A DNA stretch of 39,918 bases from Pseudomonadota bacterium (GTDB taxonomy: Bacteria > Pseudomonadota > Gammaproteobacteria > Steroidobacterales > Steroidobacteraceae): contig JAFEGC010000001.1 of NCBI GenBank assembly GCA_018240265.1, positions 1 through 39,918 of the forward strand, in the 5' to 3' direction. Below the pieces are notes generated by a model, which saw nothing but the letters and a program-made list of their open reading frames with translations, was not told where the DNA came from and made no database searches. How positions within the stretch are numbered: position 1 is the first letter of the stretch; each line of letters opens with the position of its first letter. Shown piece after piece: positions 4,438 to 20,774 of this stretch. The translations under genes and the position numbers were made by a program.

Positions 4438-5661
4438 ATGGGCCCATTGGCGGGCGTGAAAATTCTGGATCTGAGCCGCGTGCTCGCGGGACCGTGGGCC
4501 ACGCAATGCCTGGCGGACTTCGGTGCCACGGTGTGGAAAATCGAAAAACCTGGGAGCGGCGATGACACACGCCAGTGGGGCCCGCCCTGGCTCAACGATC
4601 GTTGCGGGCGCGCCAGCGGCGAGTCCGCCTACTACCTGAGCGCCAATCGCGGCAAGCAGTCAGTCGCCATCGACATCAGTCAGCCGCGCGGGCAGGCGCT
4701 GATCAAGGTGCTGGCGCAACGGGTCGACGTGCTGGTGGAAAACTTCAAGGTGGGAGGGCTCGCGAAATACGGGCTGGACTACGCCTCGTTGCAGCCGCTC
4801 AATCAGAGCCTCATCTACTGCTCCATCTCGGCGTTCGGACAGGATGGACCGGAGGCCGCCGGCGCCGGATATGACGCCATGATGCAGGGCAAGGGCGGAC
4901 TCATGAGCCTCACCGGCAATCCCGAGGATGAGCCGGGCGGCTCGCCGCAGAAAGTGGGCGTGGCGGTGTGCGACCTGATGACCGGCATGTACGCCGTGGC
5001 CGCCATCCTCGGCGCGCTGTACGAGCGGCGCGGTTCGGGGCTGGGCCAGCACATCGATCTGGCGTTGCTCGACACGCAGGTGGCGATGCTCGCCAACCAG
5101 AACATGAACTTCCTGCTGTCGGGACAATCACCCAAACGCATGGGCACGGCGCATCCCAATCTCGTGCCCTACCAGGCGGTGCGGGCGCAGGACGGAGACT
5201 TCATGCTGGCGGTGGGCAACGATCGGCAGTTCGCCGACTTCTGCCGCGTGGCGGGGCAGGAGGCGGCGGCGAGCGACGTGCGCTACGCCACCAATTCGGC
5301 GCGCATCGCCCATCGCCGCGAACTGGTCGAGGACATCGGCCGCTGGTGTGGCGCGCACCCGCGCGCCTGGTGGCTGGAACAGCTCGGCCGCGCCCATGTC
5401 CCCTGCGGCCCCATCAACGATCTGGCAGCCGTGTTCGAGGAACCGCAGGTCAAGCACCGGCGCATGCGTCTGGATCTGCCGCACCCGCTGTCGGGCTCGG
5501 TACCGCAGGTGCGCAATCCCGTGCTGTACTCGCGCACCACACTCGACTATGGCGCGGCGCCACCGCTGCTCGGACAGCAGACGGCGCAGGTACTGGCGGC
5601 GCAGACCGGGTCGAGTCCGGAGCAACTGGCCGAACTACGAGCGCTGGGAGTGATCGGCTGA
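4438..5661 (+). CDS. Family III CoA-transferase (CaiB/BaiF type)
   Basis: N-terminus MGPLAGVKILDLSRVLAGPWATQCLADFGATVWKIE is the hallmark of family III CoA-transferases. GAGG SD lies 8 nt upstream of the ATG. Confidence 0.9.
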   Translation: MGPLAGVKILDLSRVLAGPWATQCLADFGATVWKIEKPGSGDDTRQWGPPWLNDRCGRASGESAYYLSANRGKQSVAIDISQPRGQALIKVLAQRVDVLVENFKVGGLAKYGLDYASLQPLNQSLIYCSISAFGQDGPEAAGAGYDAMMQGKGGLMSLTGNPEDEPGGSPQKVGVAVCDLMTGMYAVAAILGALYERRGSGLGQHIDLALLDTQVAMLANQNMNFLLSGQSPKRMGTAHPNLVPYQAVRAQDGDFMLAVGNDRQFADFCRVAGQEAAASDVRYATNSARIAHRRELVEDIGRWCGAHPRAWWLEQLGRAHVPCGPINDLAAVFEEPQVKHRRMRLDLPHPLSGSVPQVRNPVLYSRTTLDYGAAPPLLGQQTAQVLAAQTGSSPEQLAELRALGVIG

Positions 5662-6000
5662 GGAGCGGCGCGCCGTCTTGCGCGGTGCGTGCGCTGACTT
5701 CGGTTTGTCGGGCGCGGCGTATGCTGCGGCGGGTTCGGCGACCGCGGCGACTTTTGCCAGGGGACCCGTCATCGGGCCGGCCGGCATCGGTTCCGCGCTC
5801 TTACGTTCCATCACGCTGCGCAGATTGGCATCGACGCGCTCGCGCTTCTTGAACTCGGCGATTTCCTCACGATCCACCGCCACGTCCGGCGGCACCACGA
5901 ACCCCAGCCGCACCGAACCGCCGCGGATGCGCTGCACCGACACGACGATGTGCTCGCCGATGCGCAACTTCTGGCCGGCGCGCCGTGTGAACCCTTGCAT
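5635..6000 (-). CDS. CsrA/RsmA-family RNA-binding protein paralog with ~60-aa C-terminal extension
   Basis: The core MQGFTRRAGQKLRIGEHIVVSVQRIRGGSVRLGFVVPPDVAVDREEI aligns by eye to E. coli CsrA ([47 protein letters not shown]). The start is uncertain. ATG 6000 has no clear SD. The track ORF instead begins at GTG 6102, which overlaps the stop of the upstream OYE gene (GTGA). The 3' end overlaps the convergent CoA-transferase by 27 nt. Confidence 0.7.
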   Translation of the reverse strand: MQGFTRRAGQKLRIGEHIVVSVQRIRGGSVRLGFVVPPDVAVDREEIAEFKKRERVDANLRSVMERKSAEPMPAGPMTGPLAKVAAVAEPAAAYAAPDKPKSAHAPRKTARRSSADHSQRS

Positions 6001-6098: not shown

Positions 6099-7547
6099 TC
6101 ACGGCGGCACCAGCCGCCGCTTGCCGTCCTTGGTCAGCATAAGCCCGGGCTCATCCAGCGCATCGCGATCCCACAGCTCGCAGGTCACTTCGCGATGCCG
6201 CTGATCCAGCGCTTCGCAATAATTCGTGTACTTGCACACCCGCACCGTGCCGCCCTGCCCGTCGCGCACCTTGCTAAACCAATCCGGGTCGGCCAGCGCC
6301 GCCCGCGCCAAGGCGATGATGTCGGCCTCACCACGCTCCAGGCTCGCTTCCGCCTGACTGAAGTGATGCACGCCGCCAGCCAGCACCGTCGGCGTGACGA
6401 GGCCCGCCGCACGGATCGCGTGCCGGATGCGCGTGGCCGGTTCGCGGTTACGGCCGAAGGGGCCGCGCGCATCCGAGTAGTACGAGGGCATGCACTCATA
6501 GCCGCTGCGGCCGGTATAGGGATATGCCGCCTCGCCCACCTTGGGTTGCGCGGCATCCTCGAACTTTCCGCCGCGCGACAGCGAGATAAAGTCCATGCCG
6601 GCGCCAGCCAGGCGCGCGGCGAAATACTCGGCATCCTCCACCGTGTTGCCGTCCTCGATGCATTCTTCCGCCAGCATGCGGCAGCCCACCGCGATGCGCG
6701 AACCGACCGCCGCGCGCACCGCCGCCAGCACTTCCAGCGGCAGCCGCACGCGCGCCTCGCGCTCACCGCCGTAGCCATCGTCGCGCGTATTGCGCGCCGA
6801 CAGGAACGAGGCCATGGTGTAGGCGTGCGCATAGTGCAGTTCCACGCCATCGAAACCGGCCTGCGCGGCGCGCTGCGCGGCTGCGGCGAAAATGCCGGGC
6901 AGGGTCTGCGGCAGATCGCGGATCGCCGGCACGTGCAGGTCGGTGACACGTTCGCGAAAGCCGTGTTGCAGCGATTCCCAATCGCGCGGGCTCAACGCCT
7001 GCCGCAACTCGTCGTCGGTGAGTGCGGCCAGGCGCTCGCGCACCAGCGCCTCGGGCGCATCGGCCGGCAGACGCAGATGGTCTCGATGCGAGGCCTCGAT
7101 GCGCAGATGTTGGCCGAGAAACTTCTCGCGCGATGGCCGGCGCCGGATGCCCAGGAAATCGATGATCTGGATGAACAGTCGCGTCTGGCCGCCGCTGGCT
7201 CGGCGCACCGTTTCCACCAGGCTCGCAAGTCCCGGCACGAAGCGGTCATGGCCGATGCGCAGCAGCGGACCGCTGGGCACGTCGCGCACTCCCGTGGCCT
7301 CGACCACCAGCACGCCGGGCCGGCCGCGCGCGAAGCGCTCGTACCATTGCAACACCGCGGGCGTGACCTCGCCTTCCTCGGATGCCCGCCACGGCACCAT
7401 GGCTGGCACCCAGGTGCGCGAGGTCAGCCTCACCGGTCCGACATCGACCGGTGAGAACAACCGCGAGCGCTGCGCCACCGCCGCATCGGGCCAGGGTTCG
7501 CAGATCGGCGCGTACTTGATACGCTCAGGTGGACGCCAGGTTGCCAT
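6099..7547 (-). CDS. NADH:flavin oxidoreductase, Old Yellow Enzyme family
   Basis: 482-aa ORF with OYE-type strings (GFDGVELHYAHAYTMASFLSARNTRDDGYGGEREARVRLPLEVL). C-terminal Cys triad CKYTNYCEALDQRHREVTC. The start overlaps the RidA 3' end by 23 nt. Confidence 0.88.
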   Translation of the reverse strand: MATWRPPERIKYAPICEPWPDAAVAQRSRLFSPVDVGPVRLTSRTWVPAMVPWRASEEGEVTPAVLQWYERFARGRPGVLVVEATGVRDVPSGPLLRIGHDRFVPGLASLVETVRRASGGQTRLFIQIIDFLGIRRRPSREKFLGQHLRIEASHRDHLRLPADAPEALVRERLAALTDDELRQALSPRDWESLQHGFRERVTDLHVPAIRDLPQTLPGIFAAAAQRAAQAGFDGVELHYAHAYTMASFLSARNTRDDGYGGEREARVRLPLEVLAAVRAAVGSRIAVGCRMLAEECIEDGNTVEDAEYFAARLAGAGMDFISLSRGGKFEDAAQPKVGEAAYPYTGRSGYECMPSYYSDARGPFGRNREPATRIRHAIRAAGLVTPTVLAGGVHHFSQAEASLERGEADIIALARAALADPDWFSKVRDGQGGTVRVCKYTNYCEALDQRHREVTCELWDRDALDEPGLMLTKDGKRRLVPP

Positions 7548-7977
7548 GGGTGGGTAGCTTCACGGTTGCTTCAGAAACTTCGTCGGGGATCACTGCGGTG
7601 GCCTCGATTTCCACCAGCGCGTCTTTTTCCATGAGTCCGGCCACCTGCACCACCGACATGGTGGGAAAATTCTTGCCCATCACCGAACGATAGGCGGCGC
7701 CGATGGCTTGGATTTCCTGATGATACGCGTCGCGGCTGACCACGAACCAGGTCAGGCGCACGATGTGCTCCGGCCGGCCGCCGGCGCCTTCCAGCACGGC
7801 GGCAATGTTGAGCAGCGCCTGGTGCACCTGCCCGGCCAGCGTGCTTTGCACGAAATTGCCCTGCGCATCCCAGCCAATCTGGCCGGCGATGTAGATGGTG
7901 CGGCCACGCGCGGCGATGCCGTTGGCGTAACCTTTGGGCCGCGGCCAGTTCGCAGGCTGCAGAATCTCATGGGTCAT
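7525..7977 (-). CDS. ridA: RidA/YjgF-family enamine/imine deaminase
   Basis: 150 aa. YjgF/RidA-type sequence: [18 protein letters not shown]...[18 protein letters not shown]...VEIEATAV. Its ATG overlaps the stop of the acyl-CoA dehydrogenase (ATGA at 7974-7977). Confidence 0.9.
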
Positions 7978-9167
7978 TTGGATTTTTCCTGAAGCAGTTC
8001 CCTGCCGATGATGAGTTTTTGAACTTCGCTCGCACCCTCGTAGATGCGCAGGCTCCGTATGTCACGGTATAGCCGCTCCAGCACCTCGCCACGTACCACG
8101 CCGCGGCCGCCGAACATCTGCAGCGCACGATCGATGATCCACTGCGCCGACTCGGTGGCGGTGAGCTTGGCCATGGCCGCCTCGCGCGTCACGTTTTCGC
8201 CGCGGTCGCGCAGCCACGCGGCGCGGTAGGTAAGCAGCGCCGCCGCATCGATCTGGCAGGCCATGTCCGCCAGCGCCGCCTGGGTCAACTGGAAATCCGC
8301 CAGCGTGCCGCCGAACATGCGGCGCGCCTTGGCATGCGCCAGCGCCTCGTCCAGCGCGCGGCGCGCGAAGCCCAGGGCCGCGGCGGCCACAGTGGTTCGG
8401 AACACGTCCAGCGTGCGCATCGCGATCTTGAACCCCTGCCCCTCCTCGCCGATACGCTGCGCGGCAGCGATGCGACAATCCTGGAAGGCCAGGCGCGCCA
8501 TCGGGTGCGGTGCGATCAGATCGATGCGCGAGGCGACGGACAGGCCGGGCGCATCGGCATCCACCACGAAGGCGGAGATGCCCTGCGCGCCGATGCTGCC
8601 GTTGGCACGACGCTCACCTTCGGCGGTGCGCGCGAACACGCAGTAGAAGTCGGCAATGCCGCCGTTGGAGATCCAGGTCTTCTCGCCCGCGAGCCGGTAG
8701 GCATCGCCCTCGCGCCGCGCCCGCAACTGCATGGCGGCCACATCCGAGCCCGCCTGCGGTTCGGACAGTGCGAAGGCTGCGATGGCCTCGCCACGCGCCA
8801 CGCGCGGCAGATAACGGCGCTGCAGCGCCGGATCCGCGGCCAGCGACAGTGCGCCGCTCCCCAACCCCTGCATGGCGAAGGCGAAATCCGCCAGCCCGTC
8901 GTGGTAGGCCAGGGTTTCGCGGATCAGGCCGATGGCGCGCGCGTCGAACTCCTGCAGTGCGCCGCCGAATTCACGGCGCACGCAGTAGCGCGTGAAGCCA
9001 GCCTCGCCCAGTGCACGTACCAGCCCGCGGCAATGCGCGTCGGCGGCCGGGCCGTCCTCCGGATGCTCCGTTCCGAGCGAGCGTTTCGCCCAGGCGCCGA
9101 TGTCATGCGCGAGCTGGCAGTGCGCGGCGTCGAAGAACGGCCAGTCGGTGTGGTTTGCGAGCCGCAT
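7974..9167 (-). CDS. Acyl-CoA dehydrogenase
   Basis: The track ORF 7974-9668 is over-extended; ATG at 9167 ([13 protein letters not shown]...) gives a typical ~397-aa ACAD. It has [16 protein letters not shown] and a C-terminal IYEGASEVQ catalytic-Glu region. The start overlaps the stop of the hydratase (TGATG). Confidence 0.9.
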
Positions 9168-9996
9168 CAGTTGCCCTGGAACCGTGGGCGCTGTTTGGCC
9201 GCGAACGCCTCGAACGCGCGGCGGAAATCCTCGGTCTTCATGCACAACGCCTGCGCCTGCGCCTCGGACTCGATGGCCTGATCCAGCCCCATGTTCCATT
9301 CCTGGTTCAGCATGGTCTTGGTGATACCGTGCGCGAAGGTGGGACCGGCGGTGAGCGACTGCGCCAGCGACTGCGCCTCCTTCTGCAGCTCCTCGCCCGC
9401 GATCAACCGGCTGTAGAAGCCGCAGGCCAGCGCCTCCTCCGCCGGCACGCCGCGCCCCGACAACAGCCACTCGGCGGCACGGCCGTGGCCGATGAGCCGC
9501 GGCAGGATGGCGCAGGCGCCCATGTCGCAGCCGGCAAGGCCGACGCGCGTGAACAGGAAGGCGGTCTTGGAATCCGGCGTGGACAGGCGGATGTCCGAGC
9601 ACATGGCGAGGATGGCGCCGGCACCGGCGCACACGCCTTCCACTGCGGCGATCACCGGCTGCGGGCAACCGCGGATGGCCTTGACCAGATCGCCGGTCAT
9701 GCGCGTGAAGTCCAGGATTTCCGGCATGCTCATGCGCGTGAGCGGACCGATGATCTCGTGCACATCGCCCCCCGAGCAGAAGTTGCCGCCGGCACCGGCC
9801 AGCACCACCACCTTGACGTCGGTGGCATAGACCAGGCGCCGGAACAGGTCGCGCAGTTCGGCATAGCTGTCGAAAGTCAGCGGATTCTTACGATCGGGCC
9901 GATTCAGCGTCGCCCAGCCGATGGCATCGCGCACCTCCCAGCGAAAATGCCGCGCCTGATAGCCCGCCAACGATTGTTTGCCCACATCCATCTCAC

Positions 9997-10000
<4 letters not shown>
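9167..10000 (-). CDS. Enoyl-CoA hydratase/isomerase (crotonase) family protein
   Basis: Crotonase pattern: [17 protein letters not shown]...[17 protein letters not shown]...[17 protein letters not shown] chose GTG 10000 because GGAGGAG lies 7 nt upstream and it overlaps the SDR stop (GTGA). The alternative start is ATG 9991. Confidence 0.86.
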
Positions 10001-10778
<778 letters not shown>

Positions 10779-10782
<4 letters not shown>

Positions 10783-13061
10783 ACCGGCCCCACCGCGGTC
10801 GCCGCGCGTTCCGCATTGCGCTCGGCCTGGCTCTTGGCCGACAGGTAGGGCAGCGGCCAAGCCTGTCGCGCATAACCCTGCTGCGCCGCCTGCTGCAGCG
10901 ACCACGACGGGTTGGCCAGGTGCGGGCGCGCCAGCGCGCACAGGTCGGCACGGCCCGCCGCGATGATGGAATTCACGTGATCGGCCTCGTAGATATTGCC
11001 CACCGCGATGGTTGGCACCTGCAGCGTGTTGCGCACCAGATCCGAGAACGGCGTCTGATACATGCGCCCGTAGACCGGTCGTTGCGTGGGTACCGTCTGG
11101 CCGGTGGAAATGCCCAGGATATCCGCGCCCGCATCGGTGAGCGCGCGCGCGATGGCCAATAGATCCGCCTCACTCAGACCCTGCGGCGCCCAATCGCAGG
11201 CCGACAGACGCACGCTCAGGGGTTTGTGCGCGGGCCAGGCTGCGCGCACCGCCGCCAGCACCTGCAGCGGGAACCGCACGCGGTTCTGCACGCTGCCGCC
11301 GAACTCATCGGTGCGGTGATTGGTGAGCGGCGAGAGGAAGCTCGCCAGCAGGTAACCGTGCGCCATGTGCAGTTCCAGCATGTCGAAACCGGCCTCATGA
11401 CCGCGCCGCGCCGCGCCGGCGAAATCCGCGGTGATGCGCTGCATGTCGGTGTCATCCATGACCTTCGGTGTCTGGCTGATGCCCGGCAGGTAAGGCAGCG
11501 CCGAGGGCGCGCACAGCGGCCAGTTGCCCGCGGGCAGCGGATGATCGGCCTGCTGCCATCCCAGCTGGGTGGAACCCTTGCGGCCGGCGTGCCCGATCTG
11601 CAGGCAGAACCGTGCCGCGCTTTCGGCGTGCACGAAATCCACGATGCGCTGCCAGGCGCGCATCTGCTCCTCGTTCCAGATGCCGGTGCAGCCCGGCGAG
11701 ATGCGCGCATCGGCCGAGGTGCAGGTCATCTCGGTGAACAGGAGTCCTGCGCCGCCGACGGCGCGGCTGCCGTAGTGAACCAGATGCCAGTCTCCCGGCA
11801 CGCCATCCACGGCGCGATACTGCGCCATGGGCGAGACCACCACGCGATTGTCCAGCCGCATGCCGCGCAGGGAAAACGGCAGGAACATGGGCGGGCGCGA
11901 CTCGTCCACGCGGTTGCGTCGTGCCAGATCCGCCTCCACCTCGGCGATGAAGCGCGCATCACGAACTTTCAGATTCGCGTGGCCGATGCGCTGCGAGCCC
12001 GACAGCAGGCTGTAGGTGAACTGCAGTGGGTCAAGATCCTGGTAACGCGCCACGTTCTCGAACCACTCCATGCGATTGCGCGCGGCAGCTTGCAGCTTCA
12101 GCGCCTCGATGCTGCGCTCGGACTGGTAGCTGGCCAGACCCGCCGGCACATCGGTGGCGCGCGCCAGGTGATGCACCAGCGAAATCGCATCTTCCATGGC
12201 GAGCTTGGTGCCCGAACCGATGGAAAAGTGCGCGGTGTGCGCGGCATCGCCGATCAGCACGCGGTTGCCGGCATACCAGCGCTCGCACACGATGCGGTTG
12301 AAATTGAGCCAGGCCGAGCCGCGCAGATGCCGCGCGTTGGAGATCAGCTTTTCGCCGCCCAGATAGCGCGCGAACAGCCGTTCGCAGAAGTCGATGGACT
12401 GCTGCGTGTCTGCCTGATCCAGGCCATGTGCCTGCCAGGTCTGCTCGCGGGTCTCGACGATGACGGTGGACAGGTCGCTGCTGAACTGATAGGCGTGAAT
12501 CTGGAACCAACCGTGCTCGGTTTTCTCGAAGGCGAAGGTGAAGGCGTCGAACTTCTGCCGGGTGCCCAGCCAGATGAAGCGGCACTTGCGCACGTCGATG
12601 TCGGGTTTGAACACGTCCTGATGGCGCGCGCGGGTCTTGCTGTTCACGCCCTCGGCGACCACCACCAGGTCGGCGCCGTCGAACTGCGCATCGTCGTCCA
12701 GTTCCACCTGGAAGCGTTGGATCACGCCCAGCTCGGCCGCGCGCTCCTGCAGGATGTTCAGCAGCTTCTTGCGCGCGATGCCGGCGAAGCCGTGGCCGCT
12801 GGTGCGGATGGAGCGGCCCTTGAAATGCACGTCGATGTCGTCCCAGTGGTAGAAGTTCTCCACGATGCGCGCATGCGAGGGTTCGTCCGCCGCGGCGAAG
12901 TTGCCCATGGTCTTGTCGGAGAACACCACGCCCCAGCCGAAGGTGTCGTCCGACTGGTTACGCTCGTACACTTCCACCCGGGCGGCGGGCAGCGCTTTTT
13001 TGAACAAGATGGCGCAGTACAGACCGGCCGGTCCACCGCCCATGGCGACGATGCGTTTCAT
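10779..13061 (-). CDS. Bifunctional aryl-CoA monooxygenase/reductase (2-aminobenzoyl-CoA monooxygenase/reductase or salicylyl-CoA 5-hydroxylase type): N-terminal FAD monooxygenase fused to a C-terminal OYE-like reductase
   Basis: 760 aa. The N-terminus [20 protein letters not shown] carries GxGxxG, and [22 protein letters not shown] is a flavin-monooxygenase motif. The C-terminal half is OYE-like ([40 protein letters not shown]). This fusion architecture is characteristic of that enzyme family. Confidence 0.9.
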
Positions 13062-13106
13062 GGCGTGATTATAGGCTCAAGGCATATCATTTTAAACCTG
13101 AAATAA
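13062..13106 (-). promoter_or_regulatory. 45-bp AT-rich intergenic island with a perfect TATAAT 6 nt upstream of the monooxygenase ATG; candidate internal (possibly leaderless) promoter
   Basis: Minus-sense read: TAA-TTATTTCAGGTTTAAAATGATATGCCTTGAGCCTATAATCACGCC-ATG. TATAAT is at 13068-13073. A TTTAAA -35-like hexamer lies 17 nt upstream (13091-13096). There is no SD between the -10 and the ATG. Confidence 0.3.
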
Positions 13107-14621
13107 TTAGGCGGACCCCGCCAGGCGCAGGTTTGCGATCGCGGCGGCGAGCTTGGCGCCACTGTCGTCGGATAACGCCGCCTCGCGCAACGCCCGCACC
13201 TGCTGGGCGCCGCGGCCGCTACCGACCAAGCCCTCCGCCAAGGCGCAGATCTCCCCGAACGAGCGCCAGCCGCGCTCGTGCGTCGAGCCATAACCCTTGA
13301 CCAGGTTCTGGCACTCGGCCACTTCCACCGCCAGCGCGTAATCGCTCCCCGCCAGTCCGCGGATCTGACTCAACCACTGTTCGATGCGCGCGTTCTCGGT
13401 GACGTAACGCAGCGTACCGCGGCGCAGGCGGCGCAGGCTCGCCAGCACGCGCAACGACAGAAAGCCGCTGATGCTGGACGTGCAAACGCGTCTGCCTGAG
13501 GTGAAGCGCGACAGGAAACGCGAGGCGCGGGGCGAGGCCAGCAGGCGACGGCCCAGGGCCGCCGGGAGCGTGGCGCAGATTTCCTCCACCTGCGGCTTGA
13601 CGAACTCGTTCACGCGCACGAGATCGGTGGGCGCCGCACGTACCTCTGCGCGGATCTGCTCGAAGCGGCCGGCGCGGGTTTTCACCTGCGCCACGCGCAT
13701 CACGTCCTCGAAGCTCATCCACAGCGCCAGCGAACGCGCCACCACCTCAGTGAGCCGCGTCGATTCGTTGGGACGCGGCTCCCGCCGCAGCATGTCGGCG
13801 ATGCGATCCAGGTACAGACCCGCGTAGCGGGCGTCCTGGTAATCCACCAGTCGCGCCACCGCGCGGGTCAGCAGCTCGTGCAAGGGCGACGGAAACTCGC
13901 CGGCGATGCGCGCCGTCAAGTCATCAGCCAGACGCGCGGACACAGCGAACGCGGTGTTCCCGGCGGTGGACGCCGGCTTCACGCCCGTGCCTGCTTTCGC
14001 CGCAGCCGCCGCGACGCGTCCCGCCTCGAACGCCAGCAGGCTGGCTTCGACACCGACACCGGATTCACGAATCGCCGCCTGAAAATGCCGTGTCTCCCAC
14101 GGCAGGACGCCGCTGCCGGCGATGGCGCCGAAAATCACCGCGCTGATGCGCCCGCCGGCGCGCTCCGCCACCGCCGCCATGTCGAAGGTCACCAGACGTG
14201 CGGCGGCCGAGGCTGCGCCCGCCAGCAGCTCCGTTTCGGAAGCGCGGCCATCGCCCAGCGAGGATTTCTCGCCGATGGTGTAGTCACGATGCGTCGAGGC
14301 GATGAGCGTGGTGCGCTCGGGAGTGACCAGGCCGCGGTTGATGGCGCGGCCCGCTTCCAGCAGTTCGGAGGCGACCACGATGTCTACGTCGCCGGGGCTG
14401 GGCATCAGCGCCATCACCGGCTCGCGCCCGTCGCGCAGCGCCGAGCGCGGAAAGAACTCCAGGTAGTAGATGGTGGCGCCGGTGCGCTGCGCCACTCCGG
14501 GTACCGAGGTGGCCTGCGCGAGATAGTCGGCGCTGCGCGCCGTCAGCACCAGCCAATCGGTGACCACGCCGCCGCCCTGCCCGCCCAGCGCGGCGACGGT
14601 GAGGGTGATGGGCCGGGTCAT
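13107..14621 (-). CDS. iorB: Indolepyruvate/2-oxoacid:ferredoxin oxidoreductase, beta (IorB-like) subunit
   Basis: Internal ATG 14621 (MTRPITLTVAALGGQGGGVVTDWL...) with GGAG 5 nt upstream. The N-terminal GGQG nucleotide/CoA-type motif is typical of the IorB/gamma domain. The ATG overlaps the iorA stop (ATGA). Confidence 0.88.
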   Translation of the reverse strand: MTRPITLTVAALGGQGGGVVTDWLVLTARSADYLAQATSVPGVAQRTGATIYYLEFFPRSALRDGREPVMALMPSPGDVDIVVASELLEAGRAINRGLVTPERTTLIASTHRDYTIGEKSSLGDGRASETELLAGAASAAARLVTFDMAAVAERAGGRISAVIFGAIAGSGVLPWETRHFQAAIRESGVGVEASLLAFEAGRVAAAAAKAGTGVKPASTAGNTAFAVSARLADDLTARIAGEFPSPLHELLTRAVARLVDYQDARYAGLYLDRIADMLRREPRPNESTRLTEVVARSLALWMSFEDVMRVAQVKTRAGRFEQIRAEVRAAPTDLVRVNEFVKPQVEEICATLPAALGRRLLASPRASRFLSRFTSGRRVCTSSISGFLSLRVLASLRRLRRGTLRYVTENARIEQWLSQIRGLAGSDYALAVEVAECQNLVKGYGSTHERGWRSFGEICALAEGLVGSGRGAQQVRALREAALSDDSGAKLAAAIANLRLAGSA

Positions 14622-16732
14622 AGGCGCTCCGGCGCAGGCGCGGCACGGCCACCCAACAGCCGGATGATGCCCATGCGCAACGCGTGCACGAAGCGATCCC
14701 AGCCTGAAGGGTTCTGGATGATGTCGGCGCGATAGAACGACGGACACAGCACCGCCGCGTGCGCCACTTCGCCGCACACCCCGCAGCCCACGCAGGAATT
14801 GTCCACGTAGGCCACCGGATCACGCCGCAGCGGATCGGGATGGGTCTTGATGGTCAGCGAAGGACAGCCCGACAGGCGCACGCAGGAGTGGTCGCCGGTG
14901 CAGACGTCGGCGTCCACGCCGAAGCGCTCACGTACCACGCGCTTACCCTGCCCCACCAGTTTCTTCAGGAGCGGCGCGATGCGCCGCTGGCGATTCAACT
15001 GGCACTCGCCCTCGGCGATGATGATCTTCGGACCGACGAAGCGGGTCTGCAGCGCCTCCTTCAGCACGCTCATGGCCTGGCGCATGTCGTAGGTGCGGAT
15101 GGTGCGCACCCATTCCACGCCCACGCCGCGCACCGCCGTCTCGATGCGGTTGCGCGCGTGCCGGTTCTTCACCTCGGCGCTGGAGGAGGGAATGTACTGG
15201 CCGCCGGTGGCGGCTGAGTAGCCGTTGTCGACGATGATGGTTACGCCGTCGTGCTGGTTGAACACGGCGTTGCCGATGCCGCTGGTCAGGCCGTTGTGCC
15301 AAAAGCCGCCGTCGCCCATCAGGGACAGGGCGCGGCGCTCGTTGGGAATGTTGAAGGACGCGCCGCTGGCCGCGCCCAGGCCATAACCCATGATGCTGCC
15401 GCCGATGTCGAAGGGTGGGAGCGTGGCGAAGGAATGGCAGCCGATGTCCGCACTGACCTGCATCGGGCCCAGCTCGCGCGCCAATAGCTTCATCGAGGCG
15501 AACAACGGCCGCTCCGGGCATCCGGTGCACAGGCCGGAGGGACGCAGGGGCACGTTGCGGATGAGCTGCGTCGCGGGCAGCAAAGGCTTCGCCTGCTCGG
15601 GCAGGAAGCCATATTCACCCAGGAACTGGCGCAGGCCCGCGAACAGCACCGCACCGGTGTACTCGCCGGCCATGGGCAGCGGCCCCTTGCCCACGATGCG
15701 CGTCTGCAAGTCTGCCTTACGCAGGAACAGGCTGGCCGCCTGTTCGATGAACTCGGGTTGGCCCTCCTCGACGATCAGGATGGCGCGCTTGCCGGTGGCG
15801 AAACGCACGAACTCCTCGCCCAGCAACGGATAGGTCGCGTTCAGCACATATAGCGGGATCTGCGACTCGCCGAACACATCGGCGAGCCCGAGCCGTTCCA
15901 GTGTGCGCAGCACGGTGTTGTACAAACCGCCCTGCAGCACGATGCCGATGTCGGCCTTGCCGTCCGCGAAGAACTCGTTCATGCCGCGCTCGCGGATGAA
16001 CTTCTCGGCCGCCGGCCAGCGCTGCTCGATCTTGGCCCGCTCCTGCGCGTAAGTGGAAGGAGGCAGGATGATGCGGTCAAAGGTGCGCGTCGGATGGTCC
16101 ATGGCCTGGCGCAGCGTGAACGGCGGGCGGCGGTTGTCCTTGGTGCGAAAGCGCCCCACCACGTGGCAGGCGCGGATGCGCATCATCAGCATGACCGGCG
16201 TGTTGCTGGCCTCCGACAGCTCGAAGCCCTGTTCCACAGCCTGCACCAGGCAGGGCAGGTTCGGCCGCGGGTCCAGGAGCCAGATCTGCGACTTCATGGC
16301 GAAGGCGTGGGTGCGCTCCTGCATGATGCTGGCGCCCTCGCCGTAGTCCTCGCCCAGCACGATGAGCGCGCCACCCACTACGCCGGCGGAGGCGAGGTTG
16401 GACAGCGCGTCCGAGGCTACATTGGTGCCGACCGTGGACTTCCAGGTCACCGCACCGCGAATGGGATAGTTCACCGAGGCGGCGAGCATGGCCGCGGCGG
16501 TGGCCTCGTTGGCCGAGGACTCGAAGTGCACGCCCAGCTCGCCCATGATGTCGGTGGCATCCGCCAGCACGTCCATGAGATGGGACACCGGCGCGCCCTG
16601 GTAGCCGCCGACATAGCCCACGCCCGACTGCAGCAGCGCCTTGGTGACGGCGAGAATGCCCTCGCCCTCGAACAATTCGCCGGCGCCGAGCCGCAAGGAC
16701 TCCACTTCTTTCGCAAACGATCGCTCAGCCAT
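14618..16732 (-). CDS. iorA: Indolepyruvate/2-oxoacid:ferredoxin oxidoreductase, alpha (IorA-like) subunit; TPP- and 4Fe-4S-binding
   Basis: ATG 16732 (MAERSFAKEVESL...); the track start at 16750 is a GTG. TPP motif MGDGGFWHNG. C-terminal ferredoxin-type Cys clusters CTGDHSCVRLSGCPS and CVGCGVCGEVAHAAVLCPS. Confidence 0.9.
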   Translation of the reverse strand: MAERSFAKEVESLRLGAGELFEGEGILAVTKALLQSGVGYVGGYQGAPVSHLMDVLADATDIMGELGVHFESSANEATAAAMLAASVNYPIRGAVTWKSTVGTNVASDALSNLASAGVVGGALIVLGEDYGEGASIMQERTHAFAMKSQIWLLDPRPNLPCLVQAVEQGFELSEASNTPVMLMMRIRACHVVGRFRTKDNRRPPFTLRQAMDHPTRTFDRIILPPSTYAQERAKIEQRWPAAEKFIRERGMNEFFADGKADIGIVLQGGLYNTVLRTLERLGLADVFGESQIPLYVLNATYPLLGEEFVRFATGKRAILIVEEGQPEFIEQAASLFLRKADLQTRIVGKGPLPMAGEYTGAVLFAGLRQFLGEYGFLPEQAKPLLPATQLIRNVPLRPSGLCTGCPERPLFASMKLLARELGPMQVSADIGCHSFATLPPFDIGGSIMGYGLGAASGASFNIPNERRALSLMGDGGFWHNGLTSGIGNAVFNQHDGVTIIVDNGYSAATGGQYIPSSSAEVKNRHARNRIETAVRGVGVEWVRTIRTYDMRQAMSVLKEALQTRFVGPKIIIAEGECQLNRQRRIAPLLKKLVGQGKRVVRERFGVDADVCTGDHSCVRLSGCPSLTIKTHPDPLRRDPVAYVDNSCVGCGVCGEVAHAAVLCPSFYRADIIQNPSGWDRFVHALRMGIIRLLGGRAAPAPERL

Positions 16733-16779
16733 GGCACGCCCCCGCTTCACGTCCGGCGATGCGCCGGATCATGCCCGGA

Positions 16780-16808
16780 ACTACACGTACATTCACGTGA
16801 AAAGTCAA
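16780..16808 (-). promoter_or_regulatory. Candidate sigma70-type promoter of the iorA operon with a perfect 10-bp palindrome (TTCACGTGAA) in the spacer; likely MarR operator
   Basis: Minus-sense read: TTGACT (16803-16808), 17 nt, TGTAGT (16780-16785). Palindrome TTCACGTGAA is at 16792-16801. A second perfect inverted repeat, TCCGGCG-N3-CGCCGGA, is at 16752-16768 in the 5' leader. The region lies between divergent iorA and marR. Confidence 0.4.
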
Positions 16809-16843
16809 GCAATCCGCGGGGCGCTTTGCGCGTGGCACAAAAG

Positions 16844-17365
16844 ATGGCAGTATCGCGCGCAATGAAACCGGCCAGAAAACCGGCGCGGGCGCGCCGTGCA
16901 GACGCGAAACTCCTGGCGGACCCGGCCTACGCGCGGTTCCTGCTGGACGACTCGCCCTTCTATCTCATCGCCCGCACCGGCGGCCGCTACAATCTCGACA
17001 TGCAGCGCATCATGAAGTCCGTGGACATGGACGTGCCGCGCTGGCGCGCGCTGATGATCCTGCGTGAGCGCAATCCCTCCAGCGTGTCGGAAATCGCCGA
17101 GCGCACGGTGATCCAGCTGTCCACGGTGACGCGCGTGGTGCAGCGCCTGCAACGGCAGGGCCTGGTGAAGCTGGCCAGCCGCAAATCCGATGCGCGCAAG
17201 ACCGACGTCACGCTCACGCCACGGGGCGAACAGGCGGTGCAGCAGGTGCGCAAATGCGCCAGCCGCATCTACCGGCTGGCTTTCCACGACTTCTCGGCCC
17301 GCGAGATCGAAGCCCTGAACACCCTGCTGCGCCGAGTCTACGCCAACCTCGACCTGCGGCTCTGA
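16844..17365 (+). CDS. MarR-family transcriptional regulator
   Basis: This is the C-terminal 173 aa of track ORF 16094-17365; the upstream part is antisense to iorA. Winged-helix pattern: RWRALMILRERNPSSVSEIAERTVIQLSTVTRVVQRLQRQGLVKLASRKSDARKTDVTLTPRG. ATG 16844, with an alternative at 16862. Confidence 0.87.
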   Translation: MAVSRAMKPARKPARARRADAKLLADPAYARFLLDDSPFYLIARTGGRYNLDMQRIMKSVDMDVPRWRALMILRERNPSSVSEIAERTVIQLSTVTRVVQRLQRQGLVKLASRKSDARKTDVTLTPRGEQAVQQVRKCASRIYRLAFHDFSAREIEALNTLLRRVYANLDLRL

Positions 17366-17379
17366 CCGCCGCGCCCTTC

Positions 17380-18165
17380 TTACCCCGCCGGCACCAACGC
17401 CAGCACCCGCAGCGGGCTGCCCGAGCCGTTGACGATTTTCAGCGGCGGAGCGATGACCATCGCGCCAGTGGGTGGCAGCTGGTCGAGATTGGTAAGACTG
17501 GCCAGGCCGAACTTGTTGCTACCGTGCATCAGGGTATGGCAGGGGAACATGGGATCGAAATTGGAGGCCTGGCCCGCGTCGGTGCCGACCGTTTCCACAC
17601 CCACGCCCAGCACGTCGCGCTGCTTGGCCAGGAATTCCACCGCCGACTTGTGAAAGCCCGGCGTGTGCGCGCCGTCCTGCTTGATATTAAGGTAATCCTG
17701 CGGGTTTGCGCGTTTGGACCAGTCGGTGCGCACCAGTACCCAGGACTTGGGTGTGATGCGCGCATGGCGCTTCTCCCAGCTCTGCACGCCCTCCTCGTTG
17801 AGCAGGAAATCCGGATTGGCCGCCACTTCCTTGGCCACGTCGATGACGAAGGCCGGACCGATGAACCGCTCCACCGGAATATTGTGAGTGGCGTTGTTGG
17901 GATAGTCCTTGCCGGTGACCCAGTGGATGGGCGCGTCGAAGTGCGTGCCGGTGTGCTCGCCGCAGGCAATGTTGTTCCAGTACCAACCCGGCCCGCGCTC
18001 GTCGTAACGGGAAATCTCCTGCATCGAGAATGGCTTCGACGGTGCGAAAATCGGCGGCAGCTGGATGACGGGTGTGGCCGCCTGCAGCGGCTGGGTGAGA
18101 TCCACCACCTTGACTGCGCCGCTCGCCAGCGCCTGCAGCAGGGCTTCCAACGCATTGCCGGCCAT
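17380..18165 (-). CDS. Cyclase-family metal hydrolase (kynurenine formamidase / isatin hydrolase fold)
   Basis: 261 aa. Signature HTGTHFDAPIHW (HxGTHxDxPxH). AGGAG SD lies 8 nt upstream of ATG 18165. The gene is convergent with marR with a 14-nt gap. Confidence 0.87.
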   Translation of the reverse strand: MAGNALEALLQALASGAVKVVDLTQPLQAATPVIQLPPIFAPSKPFSMQEISRYDERGPGWYWNNIACGEHTGTHFDAPIHWVTGKDYPNNATHNIPVERFIGPAFVIDVAKEVAANPDFLLNEEGVQSWEKRHARITPKSWVLVRTDWSKRANPQDYLNIKQDGAHTPGFHKSAVEFLAKQRDVLGVGVETVGTDAGQASNFDPMFPCHTLMHGSNKFGLASLTNLDQLPPTGAMVIAPPLKIVNGSGSPLRVLALVPAG

Positions 18166-18304
18166 GAGTCGATCTCCTGAAGTTTGAAGTTGAACGTGGG
18201 AACCTTATGAATACCGCGCGGCCATGGGCTACGCGCACGCACCGCCGCGCGTCCTGCGCTATTCTATTCCAGCCCCGGCGCCTTTCAAGCTTAAAGGAAT
18301 TCGC

Positions 18305-19663
18305 ATGCCGCTATGTCATTTGATCGCCTCGCTGGCCCTGTTGTCGGCCCTGTCGCTGCCGACCATGGTGGCATATGCGCAGGCCGTCTCCACACAGGAG
18401 GTCTCCACGTCCGCCAGTGCCGCGGGAATACCCGCCTCGGACGCCGCGCTCGATGCCCGGCTCGACCGGCTGTTGCGCCAGACGCCGCTGATCGACGGTC
18501 ACAACGACCTGCCTTGGGCACTGCGCGAGAACTACGGCGAGCAGTCCCTGAACGTGAATTTGAATGCCAACACCGCCCTGCTCTCCAAACCCTTACAGAC
18601 CGACATCCCACGCCTGCGGGCCGGGCACGTCGGCGCGCAGTTCTGGTCGCTGTGGATTCCGGTGGACACACCGGACGCCGCCGCCATACAGACCACGATC
18701 GAGCAGATCGACCTGGTGAAATCCATCGTGGCGCGCCATCCGCAGGCGCTGCAACTCGCCACCAGCAGTGCGGAGATCCGCCGCATCCATGCCGCTGGAC
18801 GCATCGCCTCGCTCCTGGGAATGGAGGGCGGGCACCAGATCAACGATTCCATGGCCGCGCTGCGCCAGATGTACGATCTCGGCGTGCGCTACATGACCTT
18901 GACGCACACCTCCAATACGCGCTGGGCCGATTCGGCCACGGACAACCCCCAGCACAATGGTCTCACGCCTTTCGGCAAGGCCGTCGTACACGAGATGAAC
19001 CGGCTGGGCATGATGGTGGACTTGAGCCATGTCTCGGAGCAGACCATGAACGCGGTGCTGGACGTGACCCGCGCGCCGGTGATGTTCTCGCATTCGTCGG
19101 CGCGCGCACTCAACGATCACCCGCGCAACGTCAGCGACGCCGTGCTGCGCCGGGTTGCCGCCAACGACGGCGTGGTGATGGTGAACTTCTATCCTGGTTA
19201 CATTTCCGAGGCACGCAACCGCTGGCTCGCCGACCGCGCCGCCGAGCAGACGCGTTACAACAGTCCGCCGTACCAAGGCCTGTACATCGGCCAGCCGGAA
19301 CGCGCCGCACAGGCGCTCAAAGCCTGGGAGGCGGCGCACCCCAAGCCTGCCGTGTCGGCGAGCATGCTGGCCGATCATGCGGATCACATCCGCAAAGTAG
19401 CAGGCGTTGCGCACGTGGGCCTGGGTTCGGACTTCGACGGCGTGGAGGATCTGCCCGATGGCATCAACGGCGTCGACGGCTTCCCGGTACTGCTGAAGGA
19501 GCTGATGCGCCGCGGCTGGTCCGATTCCGACATCCGTGCGCTGGCCGGTGAGAACCTGCTGCGGGTCATGGCCGCCAATGAAGCCACGGCGCGCGCCATG
19601 GCCAAGGAATTGCCTTCCACCGCCACACTCAAGGCGCTGGATTCACCGCCGCCGCATCATTGA
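18305..19663 (+). CDS. Membrane/periplasmic dipeptidase, peptidase family M19
   Basis: ATG 18305 is preceded by AGGA. Signal peptide MPLCHLIASLALLSALSLPTMVAYAQA. M19 motifs: LIDGHNDLPWALR, LGMEGGH, YMTLTHTSNTRWADS, VDLSHVS, FSHSSAR, GLGSDFDG. Confidence 0.9.
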   Translation: MPLCHLIASLALLSALSLPTMVAYAQAVSTQEVSTSASAAGIPASDAALDARLDRLLRQTPLIDGHNDLPWALRENYGEQSLNVNLNANTALLSKPLQTDIPRLRAGHVGAQFWSLWIPVDTPDAAAIQTTIEQIDLVKSIVARHPQALQLATSSAEIRRIHAAGRIASLLGMEGGHQINDSMAALRQMYDLGVRYMTLTHTSNTRWADSATDNPQHNGLTPFGKAVVHEMNRLGMMVDLSHVSEQTMNAVLDVTRAPVMFSHSSARALNDHPRNVSDAVLRRVAANDGVVMVNFYPGYISEARNRWLADRAAEQTRYNSPPYQGLYIGQPERAAQALKAWEAAHPKPAVSASMLADHADHIRKVAGVAHVGLGSDFDGVEDLPDGINGVDGFPVLLKELMRRGWSDSDIRALAGENLLRVMAANEATARAMAKELPSTATLKALDSPPPHH

Positions 19664-19671
19664 AACATCGC

Positions 19672-19703
19672 GCGGAGCGCTCTCAGTGCGCCGCGCGCTC
19701 CGC
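19672..19703. terminator. Possible hairpin between convergent genes (GCGGAGCGC / GCGCTCCGC, 14-nt loop)
   Basis: The 9-bp perfect stem is read directly (19672-19680 pairs with 19695-19703). There is no U-tract, and the 3' arm lies inside the end of the Rieske CDS, so the terminator function is doubtful. Confidence 0.2.
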
Positions 19704-20774
19704 ATCCGAGCGCCGCTTCAAATACTTGCGCATGGCGATGGCCGCGCGATCGCTGCCTACGGAGATCTCGTAGACCTCCTCGCCGGCGGCCACCAGCGCC
19801 TGTTCCACCGCCTCCAATCCCTGCACGTCCTCGTTGAAGGCCTGAAACAGCTGTTGGTGCATGAATTCGGTGATCTCCGCGCGATCCAGCGCAAAGTCCC
19901 GGCCGTGGACGATGAAATAATGGGTGGCGTGCTGCGATTCCGGCGTCGGAATGTGCGCGGTCTTGATCTGGAACACCGGCCGGGAAGACTCCGGCAGGGT
20001 CGAGTCATAGAACTGCGCCGTCACCACGTGCAGCCCGGGCGAGACGAACTCGGAAGTCGCGATCCGCGCCGCCGCGTCGTGCCCAATACCGGTGGGTTCG
20101 GCCCACACCGGCGGCAGACGCGTGGGAATCACGCTCCGGCGCAGCACGAAGCGATTCTCCTCGATGAGCACATCGTAGGGTGCCGAGACGTAGTCGGGCG
20201 TGCCGAAAGTGCGCGCATGCAAAAAACTCAGATGCGTAAGATCCATGAGATTTTCATGCAGACCTACATAACTGGCATGCAACGGCAAATACCCTTGCGA
20301 TCGATGCCAGTCGTCCGCCGCCAGCCAGGGCTGCTGCGGCACGCGCGCCGGATCGGCATGCGCGGGGTTCCCCATCCAGATCCACACCAATGGACCGTAT
20401 TCCACCACAGGGTACTGCCGTACGCCGATGCCCTTGGGACAGGTGGCCTGCGAGGGAATCTGGATGCAGTCGCCCTGCGCGTCGTAGCGAAACCCGTGGT
20501 AGCCGCAGACGATGGTGTCGCCGTCGAGCGTGCCCGCCGACAGGGGCAGCGAGCGGTGCGCGCAACGATCCTCCAGCGCAACCGGCCGGCCCTCCTGGGT
20601 GCGGAACAACACCAGGTTGCGGCCCAGGACGCGGCGCTTCAACAACAGACGACCGATCTCGCTGCCGAAAGCCGCCACGTACCATTCGTCGAATATGAAC
20701 GGTGTGTTCCGATCCGCCAGGGATTGGGCCGCGGCGCGGGAAGCGCGGATAAGTTCGCGTGAGGGCAAGGTCAT
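19683..20774 (-). CDS. Rieske [2Fe-2S] aromatic-ring hydroxylating/demethylating oxygenase, alpha subunit (VanA/phthalate-family type)
   Basis: Internal ATG 20774 (MTLPSRELI...) with GGAGAA upstream. Rieske motif CAHRSLPLSAGTLDGDTIVCGYHGFRY. Mononuclear-iron motif HENLMDLTHLSFLH. No reductase or ferredoxin partner is present in the window. Confidence 0.9.
   Translation of the reverse strand: MTLPSRELIRASRAAAQSLADRNTPFIFDEWYVAAFGSEIGRLLLKRRVLGRNLVLFRTQEGRPVALEDRCAHRSLPLSAGTLDGDTIVCGYHGFRYDAQGDCIQIPSQATCPKGIGVRQYPVVEYGPLVWIWMGNPAHADPARVPQQPWLAADDWHRSQGYLPLHASYVGLHENLMDLTHLSFLHARTFGTPDYVSAPYDVLIEENRFVLRRSVIPTRLPPVWAEPTGIGHDAAARIATSEFVSPGLHVVTAQFYDSTLPESSRPVFQIKTAHIPTPESQHATHYFIVHGRDFALDRAEITEFMHQQLFQAFNEDVQGLEAVEQALVAAGEEVYEISVGSDRAAIAMRKYLKRRSDAERAAH

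Follow-up and report, generated by a model that had tools for sequence, protein, structure and literature searches.

What supplies the aroyl-CoA to an aryl-CoA catabolic cluster that has no aryl-CoA ligase beside it? This question is raised by positions 6099–18165 of contig JAFEGC010000001.1 (assembly GCA_018240265.1, Steroidobacteraceae), where the gene for a bifunctional aroyl-CoA monooxygenase/reductase (hereafter bif) is preceded by the genes iorA and iorB of a 2-oxoacid:ferredoxin oxidoreductase. The whole 39,918-nucleotide stretch of DNA analysed is referred to as the window, and the search for a ligase covered this window only. The initial annotation of the locus had proposed that the IorAB-like enzyme oxidatively decarboxylates an arylglyoxylate, for example isatinate, straight to the aroyl-CoA, bypassing ATP-dependent activation. 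This central inference is supported by the orthology of a neighbouring hydrolase to isatin hydrolases, by the exclusion between iorAB and ligase in bif loci, and by the linkage of iorAB to the hydrolase across phyla. In the best-supported explanation, which we regard as fairly probable, IorAB would take isatinate from isatin hydrolase straight to 2-aminobenzoyl-CoA, replacing the ligase. The genes of the cluster are the following.

iorA: 14618–16732, minus strand; 704 aa, IorA-like alpha subunit of a 2-oxoacid:ferredoxin oxidoreductase
iorB: 13107–14621, minus strand; 504 aa, IorB-like beta subunit; ATGA overlap with iorA
bif: 10779–13061, minus strand; 760 aa, bifunctional aroyl-CoA monooxygenase/reductase (FAD monooxygenase and old yellow enzyme (OYE)/FMN reductase)
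Short-chain dehydrogenase (SDR): 9997–10782, minus strand; PF00106; ATGA overlap with bif
Enoyl-CoA hydratase family: 9167–10000, minus strand; NF006107, 471 bits, cutoff 330; GTGA overlap with the SDR gene
Acyl-CoA dehydrogenase: 7974–9167, minus strand; PF00441, PF02770, PF02771; TGATG, 1-nt overlap with the hydratase gene
RidA-family enamine/imine deaminase: 7525–7977, minus strand; PF01042; ATGA overlap with the acyl-CoA dehydrogenase gene
Second OYE-family flavin oxidoreductase: 6099–7547, minus strand; 482 aa, PF00724 (E = 1e-36); 23-nt overlap with the RidA gene
MarR-family regulator: 16844–17365 (alternative ATG at 16862), plus strand; PF12802, PF01047
Isatin hydrolase (cyclase-fold, Mn-dependent amidohydrolase): 17380–18165, minus strand; 261 aa, PF04199 (E = 6e-40)

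Isatin hydrolase, IorAB and the missing ligase

In a phmmer search of the PDB, the cyclase-family protein matched isatin hydrolases over its full length: RsIHA of Ralstonia solanacearum (5NMP) with E = 1.4e-97, and LaIHA (5NNA/5NNB) and LaIHB (4J0N) of Labrenzia aggregata with 2e-95 to 5e-81. RsIHA (5NMP) and LaIHA/LaIHB (5NNA, 4J0N) have been crystallised and kinetically characterised, and their Mn ligands and Asp-His-His catalytic residues listed (PMC6117287). The window hydrolase shares 56–60% identity with enzymes whose activity on isatin has been measured. Its alignment with the published residue list shows that the metal and catalytic residues (H71, H75, D77, H81, D196, and H210) and the W61/W63 hairpin are retained, the HxGTHxDxPxH Mn site and the Asp-His-His triad both being present. 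The equivalent of Gln219 is Ala, the same as in LaIHB, and no substantial sequence-level difference from RsIHA, LaIHA or LaIHB was seen. A reading of the gene as kynurenine formamidase was rejected, as it scored 42 bits with TIGR03035 against a cutoff of 223, and KynB-type structures in the PDB were matched at about 1e-5 compared with 1e-97. By sequence, the protein is an orthologue of isatin hydrolase (EC 3.5.2.20), and the full-length matches to crystallised and assayed enzymes bear out the suggestion of an isatin hydrolase of the cyclase fold made in the initial annotation.

The bif product passes the model NF006101, “bifunctional salicylyl-CoA 5-hydroxylase/oxidoreductase” (1216 bits, cutoff 1078). 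It comprises domains PF01494 (residues 7–319) and PF00724 (residues 392–722), and in the PDB its N-terminal part is VioD-like and its C-terminal part OYE-like. From the context, namely RidA, the beta-oxidation-type genes, isatin hydrolase and the presence of kynU/kynA beside homologous clusters, we infer that its substrate is 2-aminobenzoyl-CoA and not salicylyl-CoA. With six aryl-CoA ligases as queries, tblastn over the six reading frames of the window gave a best E of 0.09, confirming that no AMP-binding ligase is encoded in these 39.9 kb, as had been noted from the open reading frames.

IorA contains the TPP_enzyme_C domain (PF02775, E = 8e-16, residues 429–563), and its translation shows a GDGG...VDNGY thiamine pyrophosphate (TPP) motif and the C-terminal cysteine motifs CTGDHSCVRLSGCP and CVGCGVCG...CP, with no Pfam Fer4 match at E ≤ 0.001. 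The best named model for IorA is TIGR03336, the alpha subunit of indolepyruvate:ferredoxin oxidoreductase (IOR), at 275 bits, less than half of the cutoff of 650.9; no solved structure in the PDB was matched. IorB, carrying the POR (PF01558) and DUF6537 (PF20169) domains, scores 635 bits with NF006179 (“beta family protein”, cutoff 348) and falls below the cutoff of TIGR03334 (31 vs. 205.8 bits). By these models, IorA is IOR-like but not canonical, and IorAB represents a separate IOR-like subfamily whose beta subunit is extended by DUF6537. A small tree of IorA proteins sets the hydrolase-linked ones in a clade of their own, apart from two Variovorax plasmid copies located beside FMN-dependent 2-hydroxyacid dehydrogenases. 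In a published gene table, iorA and iorB correspond to iadA and iadB, which head the iad auxin-degradation operons (PMC12852158).

One genome per species was scanned with a bif alignment, and the 80 loci kept, with up to 10 kb of flank, were scored by tblastn (loci and further matches are cited below by L and H numbers). iorAB is present in ten loci, all of them devoid of a 2-aminobenzoate-CoA ligase; such a ligase occurs in 39 of the 70 loci without iorAB (Fisher p = 0.001). As regards the question posed in the initial annotation, whether iorAB accompanies bif specifically where ligases are absent, the two exclude each other in this set. The other 31 of the 80 loci hold neither ligase nor iorAB within their flanks, many being truncated by contig ends. 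In the Steroidobacteraceae relatives L017, L022, L023, L028, and L038, with bif 69–72% identical to that of the window, the ligase lies directly upstream of bif, on the same side as iorAB in the window. The ligase-type clusters of Burkholderia, Ralstonia and Comamonas have the composition bif-SDR-(MarR)-hydratase-acyl-CoA dehydrogenase-(thioesterase)-RidA together with an AMP-binding “2-aminobenzoate-CoA ligase”, and in Aminobacter the bif cluster is located beside kynA/kynU. A neighbour-joining tree of bif places the members linked to iorAB and the hydrolase at no fewer than six separate places among the ligase-linked ones, and their hosts belong to three phyla, comprising Gammaproteobacteria, Betaproteobacteria (Telluria, Ralstonia, Burkholderia), Gemmatimonadales and Actinomycetota. 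Because iorAB-linked bif is scattered over the tree and the taxa in this way, the iorAB-bif pattern does not go back to one inherited event.

In the same 80 loci, the hydrolase is present in nine of the ten with iorAB and in one of the 70 without (p = 4e-10). The sole iorAB locus lacking it ends 1.1 kb upstream of bif, and the co-occurrence among bif loci with full flanks is 6/6 vs. 0/41. Among the 72,556 records of PLSDB, a hydrolase homologue is found in only 61 (E < 1e-40) and an IorA homologue in 52 (E < 1e-100); 42 of these 52 also hold the hydrolase homologue, with the two no more than 5 kb apart in at least 20 of the 42. Paracoccus carries hydrolase-MarR-iorA-iorB as a minimal unit without other pathway genes, and Tritonibacter the same module with additional FAD oxidoreductases. 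The paper describing the isatin hydrolase structures does not discuss genomic partner enzymes (PMC6117287); in a Ralstonia genome with an RsIHA-type hydrolase, this gene is clustered with iorA(B), a thioesterase gene and bif. Judged by these distributions, the hydrolase and iorAB behave as a mobile “isatin funnel” module, apparently joined to bif operons repeatedly in place of a ligase.

The locus would accordingly encode the catabolism of isatin, or of indole or auxin derivatives degraded by way of isatin. The Mn-dependent hydrolase would open isatin to isatinate (2-aminophenylglyoxylate), as expected from its close orthology to assayed enzymes. IorAB, as a putative TPP/iron-sulfur enzyme, would then convert isatinate and CoA to 2-aminobenzoyl-CoA and CO2 by oxidative decarboxylation, transferring two electrons to an acceptor and needing neither ATP nor free anthranilate. 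The bif product, as its family assignment indicates, could hydroxylate and reduce the aroyl-CoA. The SDR, hydratase, acyl-CoA dehydrogenase, RidA and second OYE proteins would perform beta-oxidation-like processing and deamination of the non-aromatic CoA ester, a sequence modelled on the ligase-type 2-aminobenzoyl-CoA clusters with their conserved gene content. In this scheme we infer the substrate and product of IorAB, the substrate of bif, the electron acceptor, and the ligand and operator of the regulator.

Counter-evidence and rival explanations

Several observations weigh against the formation of 2-aminobenzoyl-CoA by IorAB. Oxygen sensitivity is common among 2-oxoacid:ferredoxin oxidoreductases, yet bif requires O2. 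The window contains no ferredoxin gene, and neither indole- or indole-3-acetic acid (IAA)-oxidising genes nor any other source of isatin are encoded there. A ligase could be located elsewhere in this genome, and the lack of a nearby one is not in itself unusual, being common to the 31 bif loci with neither ligase nor iorAB. Nor is the exclusivity absolute, as both the ligase and iorAB lie beside bif in the actinobacterial Tsukamurella. Since IorA scores far below the IOR-alpha cutoff and has no solved relative, the substrate specificity of IorAB is unreadable from its sequence. The model also leaves unexplained the genome L010 (GCA_009612955.1), which is syntenic with the whole window and has bif cleanly deleted with the other genes kept (L010:11545–11662). 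The bif promoter and first eight codons are joined there to the last codons, and the 10-codon remnant ATGAAGCGAATCGTCGCCATGGGGCCGGCATGA directly precedes the SDR start; the identical junction is found in three independent samples (L010, L011, and L012). A further point comes from a 2025 Variovorax preprint, which leaves iadA/iadB unmentioned: anthranilate production is restored by the nine genes iadC-K2 even when iadAB are missing (PMC12633357), so that isatinate can reach anthranilate without IorAB, at least under overexpression. In the same study, C8H7NO3, which is not N-formylanthranilate, and C7H7NO pile up strongly only in the locus-deletion strain expressing iadC-K2 (PMC12633357). C8H7NO3 has the formula of isatinate, and its build-up without iadAB is consistent with the consumption of isatinate by IadAB; overexpression alone could also explain it.

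IorAB could instead be an indolepyruvate or arylpyruvate oxidoreductase producing indoleacetyl-CoA or phenylacetyl-CoA and associated with the hydrolase only via a shared tryptophan/auxin regulon; isatinate would then yield free anthranilate, spontaneously or by another enzyme, and a ligase would be encoded elsewhere. This is unlikely in our view. IOR_alpha is indeed the best named model for IorA, and its curated cutoff is more than twice the score obtained. Likewise, iadAB head auxin operons whose remaining genes suffice for anthranilate formation, while iorAB is linked specifically to isatin hydrolase even in loci without iadCDE, and neither the window nor the minimal hydrolase-MarR-iorAB modules hold anything able to use indoleacetyl-CoA. 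The 31 of 80 bif loci without a ligase within 10 kb make remote ligases plausible, and Tsukamurella, with both its ligase and iorAB, also speaks for this reading; against it, the two occur together in none of the 80 loci, and the upstream side of bif that iorAB occupies here belongs to the ligase in related clusters.

Less probable still is the use of another 2-oxoacid by IorAB, either a kynurenine-derived side chain (giving 2-aminobenzoylacetyl-CoA) or oxidised 2-aminomandelate from dioxindole, with the hydrolase acting on a different lactam. IadI of Variovorax, for which a broad amidase role was suggested, apparently acts downstream of C8H7NO2, a formula that fits dioxindole (PMC12633357); the window hydrolase nevertheless has 56–60% identity to enzymes assayed for their activity on isatin. 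The kynU/kynA genes near some bif clusters and the FMN 2-hydroxyacid dehydrogenases beside sister-clade IorAB would agree with such substrates, but genes for a transaminase, thiolase, tryptophan dioxygenase or 2-hydroxyacid dehydrogenase are lacking in the window, and the 2-aminomandelate variant still leads to isatinate as the substrate of IorAB. We give very little credence to the activation of anthranilate or salicylate by the family III CoA-transferase (CoA_transf_3; 4438–5661, plus strand), with IorAB unrelated to activation. This gene, which had been put forward as a substitute for the ligase, does exist and adjoins the cluster, and L010, the genome nearest in synteny, retains it. It lies on the strand opposite to the cluster, is absent from the iorAB-bif loci L013, L015, L018–L027, L032, and L077, and matches best a succinate-glutarate CoA-transferase, fitting a late dicarboxylate step or an unrelated function. 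The gene was rejected as the main explanation on account of this resemblance and its retention only in L010.

Returning to the oxidation of isatinate by IorAB, a broader proposal, towards which we incline slightly, is that the IorAB/IadAB clade is an oxygen-compatible isatinate:acceptor oxidoreductase forming 2-aminobenzoyl-CoA and travelling with the hydrolase and MarR as the mobile module described above, which would repeatedly have displaced the ligase. For decades, the bacterial degradation of indole and IAA has been reported to pass through isatin and isatinic acid. In the literature searched, no paper was found that proposes the conversion of isatinate to 2-aminobenzoyl-CoA by IorAB or combines both compounds, and in none is the step following isatin hydrolase ascribed to an enzyme; isatin and IOR are mentioned together only by Conway et al. 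If the proposal is true, IorAB would be the missing enzyme following isatin hydrolase in aerobic indole and auxin degradation. A function would then be given to iadAB, which serve as markers for auxin-degrading iad operons in plant microbiomes, and it would be explained why many aminobenzoyl-CoA clusters lack a ligase. Such an aerobic, ATP-saving arylglyoxylate oxidoreductase would provide ATP-free entry into aminobenzoyl-CoA pathways and a testable enzyme for the engineering of auxin- or indole-degrading strains.

Gene order, regulation and related loci

The open reading frames, Pfam and NCBIfam searches reveal nine minus-strand genes with the expected families and start/stop overlaps, and the divergent MarR gene. 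The coordinates agree with the initial annotation in the co-directional arrangement of iorAB, bif, SDR, hydratase, acyl-CoA dehydrogenase, RidA and OYE genes with ATGA, GTGA and TGATG junctions, and in the placement of the cyclase-family gene next to the divergent MarR gene; the gene families it named are those recovered by the Pfam and NCBIfam searches. Gene calls in relatives reproduce the junction overlaps of the window, the 23-nt RidA/OYE overlap being called also in L010 and L013, and alignment with these two loci supports the start of iorA. The only gap between iorA and the OYE gene is the 45 bp at 13062–13106, between iorB and bif. The MarR gene diverges from iorA and converges with the hydrolase gene, 14 bp apart. 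The SDR gene comes after bif in most homologous clusters, and RidA is a conserved component of bif clusters. The OYE gene after RidA is conserved in Steroidobacteraceae-type clusters, both iorAB-bearing (L013, L015, L026, and L027) and ligase-bearing (L022). In the genome scan with the bif alignment, the window was closest to Steroidobacteraceae/Povalibacter metagenome-assembled genomes.

Three putative regulatory sites were located.

Promoter/operator block between the MarR gene and iorA: 16792–16808, minus strand; -35-like TTGACT at 16808–16803, then the perfect palindrome TTCACGTGAA at 16801–16792
Promoter-like site upstream of the hydrolase gene: 18261–18288, minus strand; TTGAAA-16-TAGAAT, 10/12 consensus matches, a consensus match only
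AT-rich spacer between iorB and bif: 13062–13106, minus strand; sigma-70-like TTTAAA-17-TATAAT at 13096–13068

Among solved structures, the MarR protein matches IacR of P. putida (7KUA, E = 1e-32), 7L19 (2e-22) and IadR of Variovorax (7KFO, 1e-12), so that its closest solved relatives are the auxin-catabolism MarR proteins of Conway et al. (2022). Between the MarR gene and iorA, the window, L010 and L013 have diverged except in the block CTTGACTTTTCACGTGAAT, which is identical in all three. The palindrome TTCACGTGAA is a likely MarR operator, and the IacR/IadR-like regulator probably represses iorAB via this conserved element, which overlaps the iorA promoter.

The -10 box of the putative bif promoter ends 6 nt ahead of the bif ATG, and the bif transcript may therefore be leaderless. 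L007, L008, and L010 retain both hexamers, of which L013 has weaker versions; the end of iorB contains a weak hairpin with a T-rich tail (13122–13110). Because of the conserved promoter-like hexamers in the iorB-bif spacer, bif and the downstream genes probably have their own transcript. The cluster may thus consist of two adjacent units, MarR-controlled iorAB and bif with the downstream genes. The “supra-operon” of the initial annotation holds as regards the overlapped, co-directional genes, and the conserved promoter at 13062–13106 speaks against a single unit. Functional coupling of iorAB and bif needs no co-transcription; in L019 and L025–L027 the hydrolase-iorAB unit is divergent from bif.

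Further genes were noted beside the cluster and elsewhere in the window. A CsrA-domain open reading frame with a long Ala/Pro-rich C-terminal tail (5635–6000, minus strand) directly follows the OYE gene and is also found after the cluster in L010. The hydrolase gene is flanked by the genes for an M19 membrane dipeptidase (18224–19663, plus strand) and a VanA-type Rieske protein (19683–20762, minus strand); this arrangement is kept in L007, and the M19 gene also in L010, with no evident role. Elsewhere in the window, an open reading frame HipA-like by translation (37223–38530, minus strand) and an acetamidase/formamidase-family gene (PF03069; 34706–35860, plus strand), the latter beside an open reading frame MFS-transporter-like by translation, have no apparent relation to the pathway genes.

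A second type of cluster (L102, L096, L100 and, in Sagittula, L101) combines the hydrolase and iorAB with a 4HBT thioesterase, bif, and a cupin dioxygenase, and further holds FAH, a nitrilase-family hydrolase and a maleate isomerase/racemase, often with indole-monooxygenase-like genes. In R. solanacearum (L102, CP022791.1) the order is SDR, StyA-like monooxygenase, flavin reductase, hydrolase, FAD oxidoreductase, AraC, iorA(B), thioesterase, bif, a gene of about 380 aa, FAH, nitrilase, racemase and MarR. The ~380-aa gene is annotated as NADPH dehydrogenase, and a cupin dioxygenase occupies the equivalent position in L096; Burkholderia sp. SFA1 (L096) and Tsukamurella (L100) show close variants of this order. 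The second type is a candidate genetic basis of the old “indole-isatin-anthranilate-gentisate” route (mentioned in PMC6221969). The isatin funnel would thus feed either a beta-oxidation-like branch, as in the window, or the thioesterase/cupin-dioxygenase/nitrilase branch of Ralstonia, Burkholderia and Tsukamurella, and the latter branch could underlie the old route.

Genes for iorAB without an isatin hydrolase were also found on plasmids. IS1071 composite transposons of linuron-degrading Variovorax and Hydrogenophaga (H124–H129) carry iorAB beside dca chloroaniline genes, with IorA 64.5% identical and matched in two pieces; they are mentioned without a function in PMC7313664. Plasmids of Variovorax boronicumulans (L005) and Variovorax sp. 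PDNC026 (L094) hold more distant iorAB pairs, with IorA 53–61% identical, adjoining an FMN-dependent 2-hydroxyacid dehydrogenase and ABC or TRAP transporters, with a LysR gene and a thioesterase-like stretch additionally in L094. These two iorAB pairs probably serve a different 2-oxoacid specificity. A “mandelate-like” context was considered for them and found weak, as the only models matched by the FMN dehydrogenases are general ones of the L-lactate dehydrogenase family and the enolase-family gene resembles an acid-sugar dehydratase. They show only that iorAB relatives lie beside a 2-oxoacid-generating step.

Comparison with known systems

In Azoarcus evansii, the 2-aminobenzoyl-CoA monooxygenase/reductase cluster depends on a 2-aminobenzoate-CoA ligase. 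The window shares with the abm cluster of Azoarcus/Aromatoleum evansii and the 2-aminobenzoyl-CoA cluster of Cupriavidus sp. SHE the bif-SDR-hydratase-acyl-CoA dehydrogenase-RidA set and MarR control. The abm-type clusters use free anthranilate and the ATP-dependent ligase, often with a thioesterase, whereas the window cluster lacks both these genes and adds isatin hydrolase and IorAB upstream of bif, and a second OYE gene.

The proposed chemistry of IorAB resembles that of phenylglyoxylate:acceptor oxidoreductase (PadEFGHI) of A. evansii, which makes benzoyl-CoA directly from an arylglyoxylate. Both reactions would yield aroyl-CoA and CO2 from an arylglyoxylate and CoA using TPP and iron-sulfur centres in the 2-oxoacid oxidoreductase superfamily, a likeness that concerns the proposed chemistry only. 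Pad has five subunits, is oxygen-sensitive and belongs to anaerobic phenylalanine/phenylacetate metabolism, while IorAB has two subunits, with DUF6537 on the beta subunit, and is part of an O2-requiring pathway. In the Streptomyces sdg route, a ligase is followed by a thioesterase and gentisate dioxygenase. The window bif passes the NCBIfam model named after the salicylyl-CoA 5-hydroxylase SdgC of this route; the window differs from sdg in its beta-oxidation-type genes and RidA. A thioesterase/cupin/FAH variant accompanies iorAB in Ralstonia, Burkholderia SFA1 and Tsukamurella but is not present in the window.

With the iad operons of Variovorax, Achromobacter and Bradyrhizobium (iadR-iadABCDEFGHIJ...), the window has in common a divergent MarR gene, iorAB (iadA/iadB) and a cyclase-family gene (iadI). 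The link between iorAB and iad is drawn from published gene tables and from roseobacter loci with iad-type genes and iorAB (L101; H93 and H144 of Ruegeria pomeroyi), and in the iad-type locus of Roseibium (L097) an isatin hydrolase homologue is located at the iadI position. The iad pathway runs through isatin and isatinic acid (PMC12852158, PMC9613470). The iadA/iadB genes have been used as exclusive markers of this operon type without an assigned function, and IadR binds between iadR and iadA (PMC9613470). The “iadA/iadB” of Pseudomonas sp. LY1 (PMC8383072) were set aside as unrelated, belonging to an iac-type cluster with different naming. Absent from the window are iadCDE, the Rieske oxygenase genes necessary and sufficient for IAA attack, and iadFGHJ; it contains no alpha/beta dioxygenase pair, thiolase or AMP ligase, its only Rieske gene being the single VanA-type one beyond the M19 gene. 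Because iadCDE and iadFGH/J (ligase, thiolase, SDRs) are missing, the window cluster cannot attack IAA itself. Its MarR protein is nearer to IacR than to the iad-type IadR, and, unlike the iad operon, the window couples iadA/B/I-like genes directly to the 2-aminobenzoyl-CoA pathway.

Degradation of indole in Cupriavidus has been linked to the ligase-dependent 2-aminobenzoyl-CoA cluster, and a 2018 review listed the role of isatin among the open questions (PMC6221969). Overall, the cluster described here is a variant of the known 2-aminobenzoyl-CoA pathway combined with IOR-type oxidoreductases.

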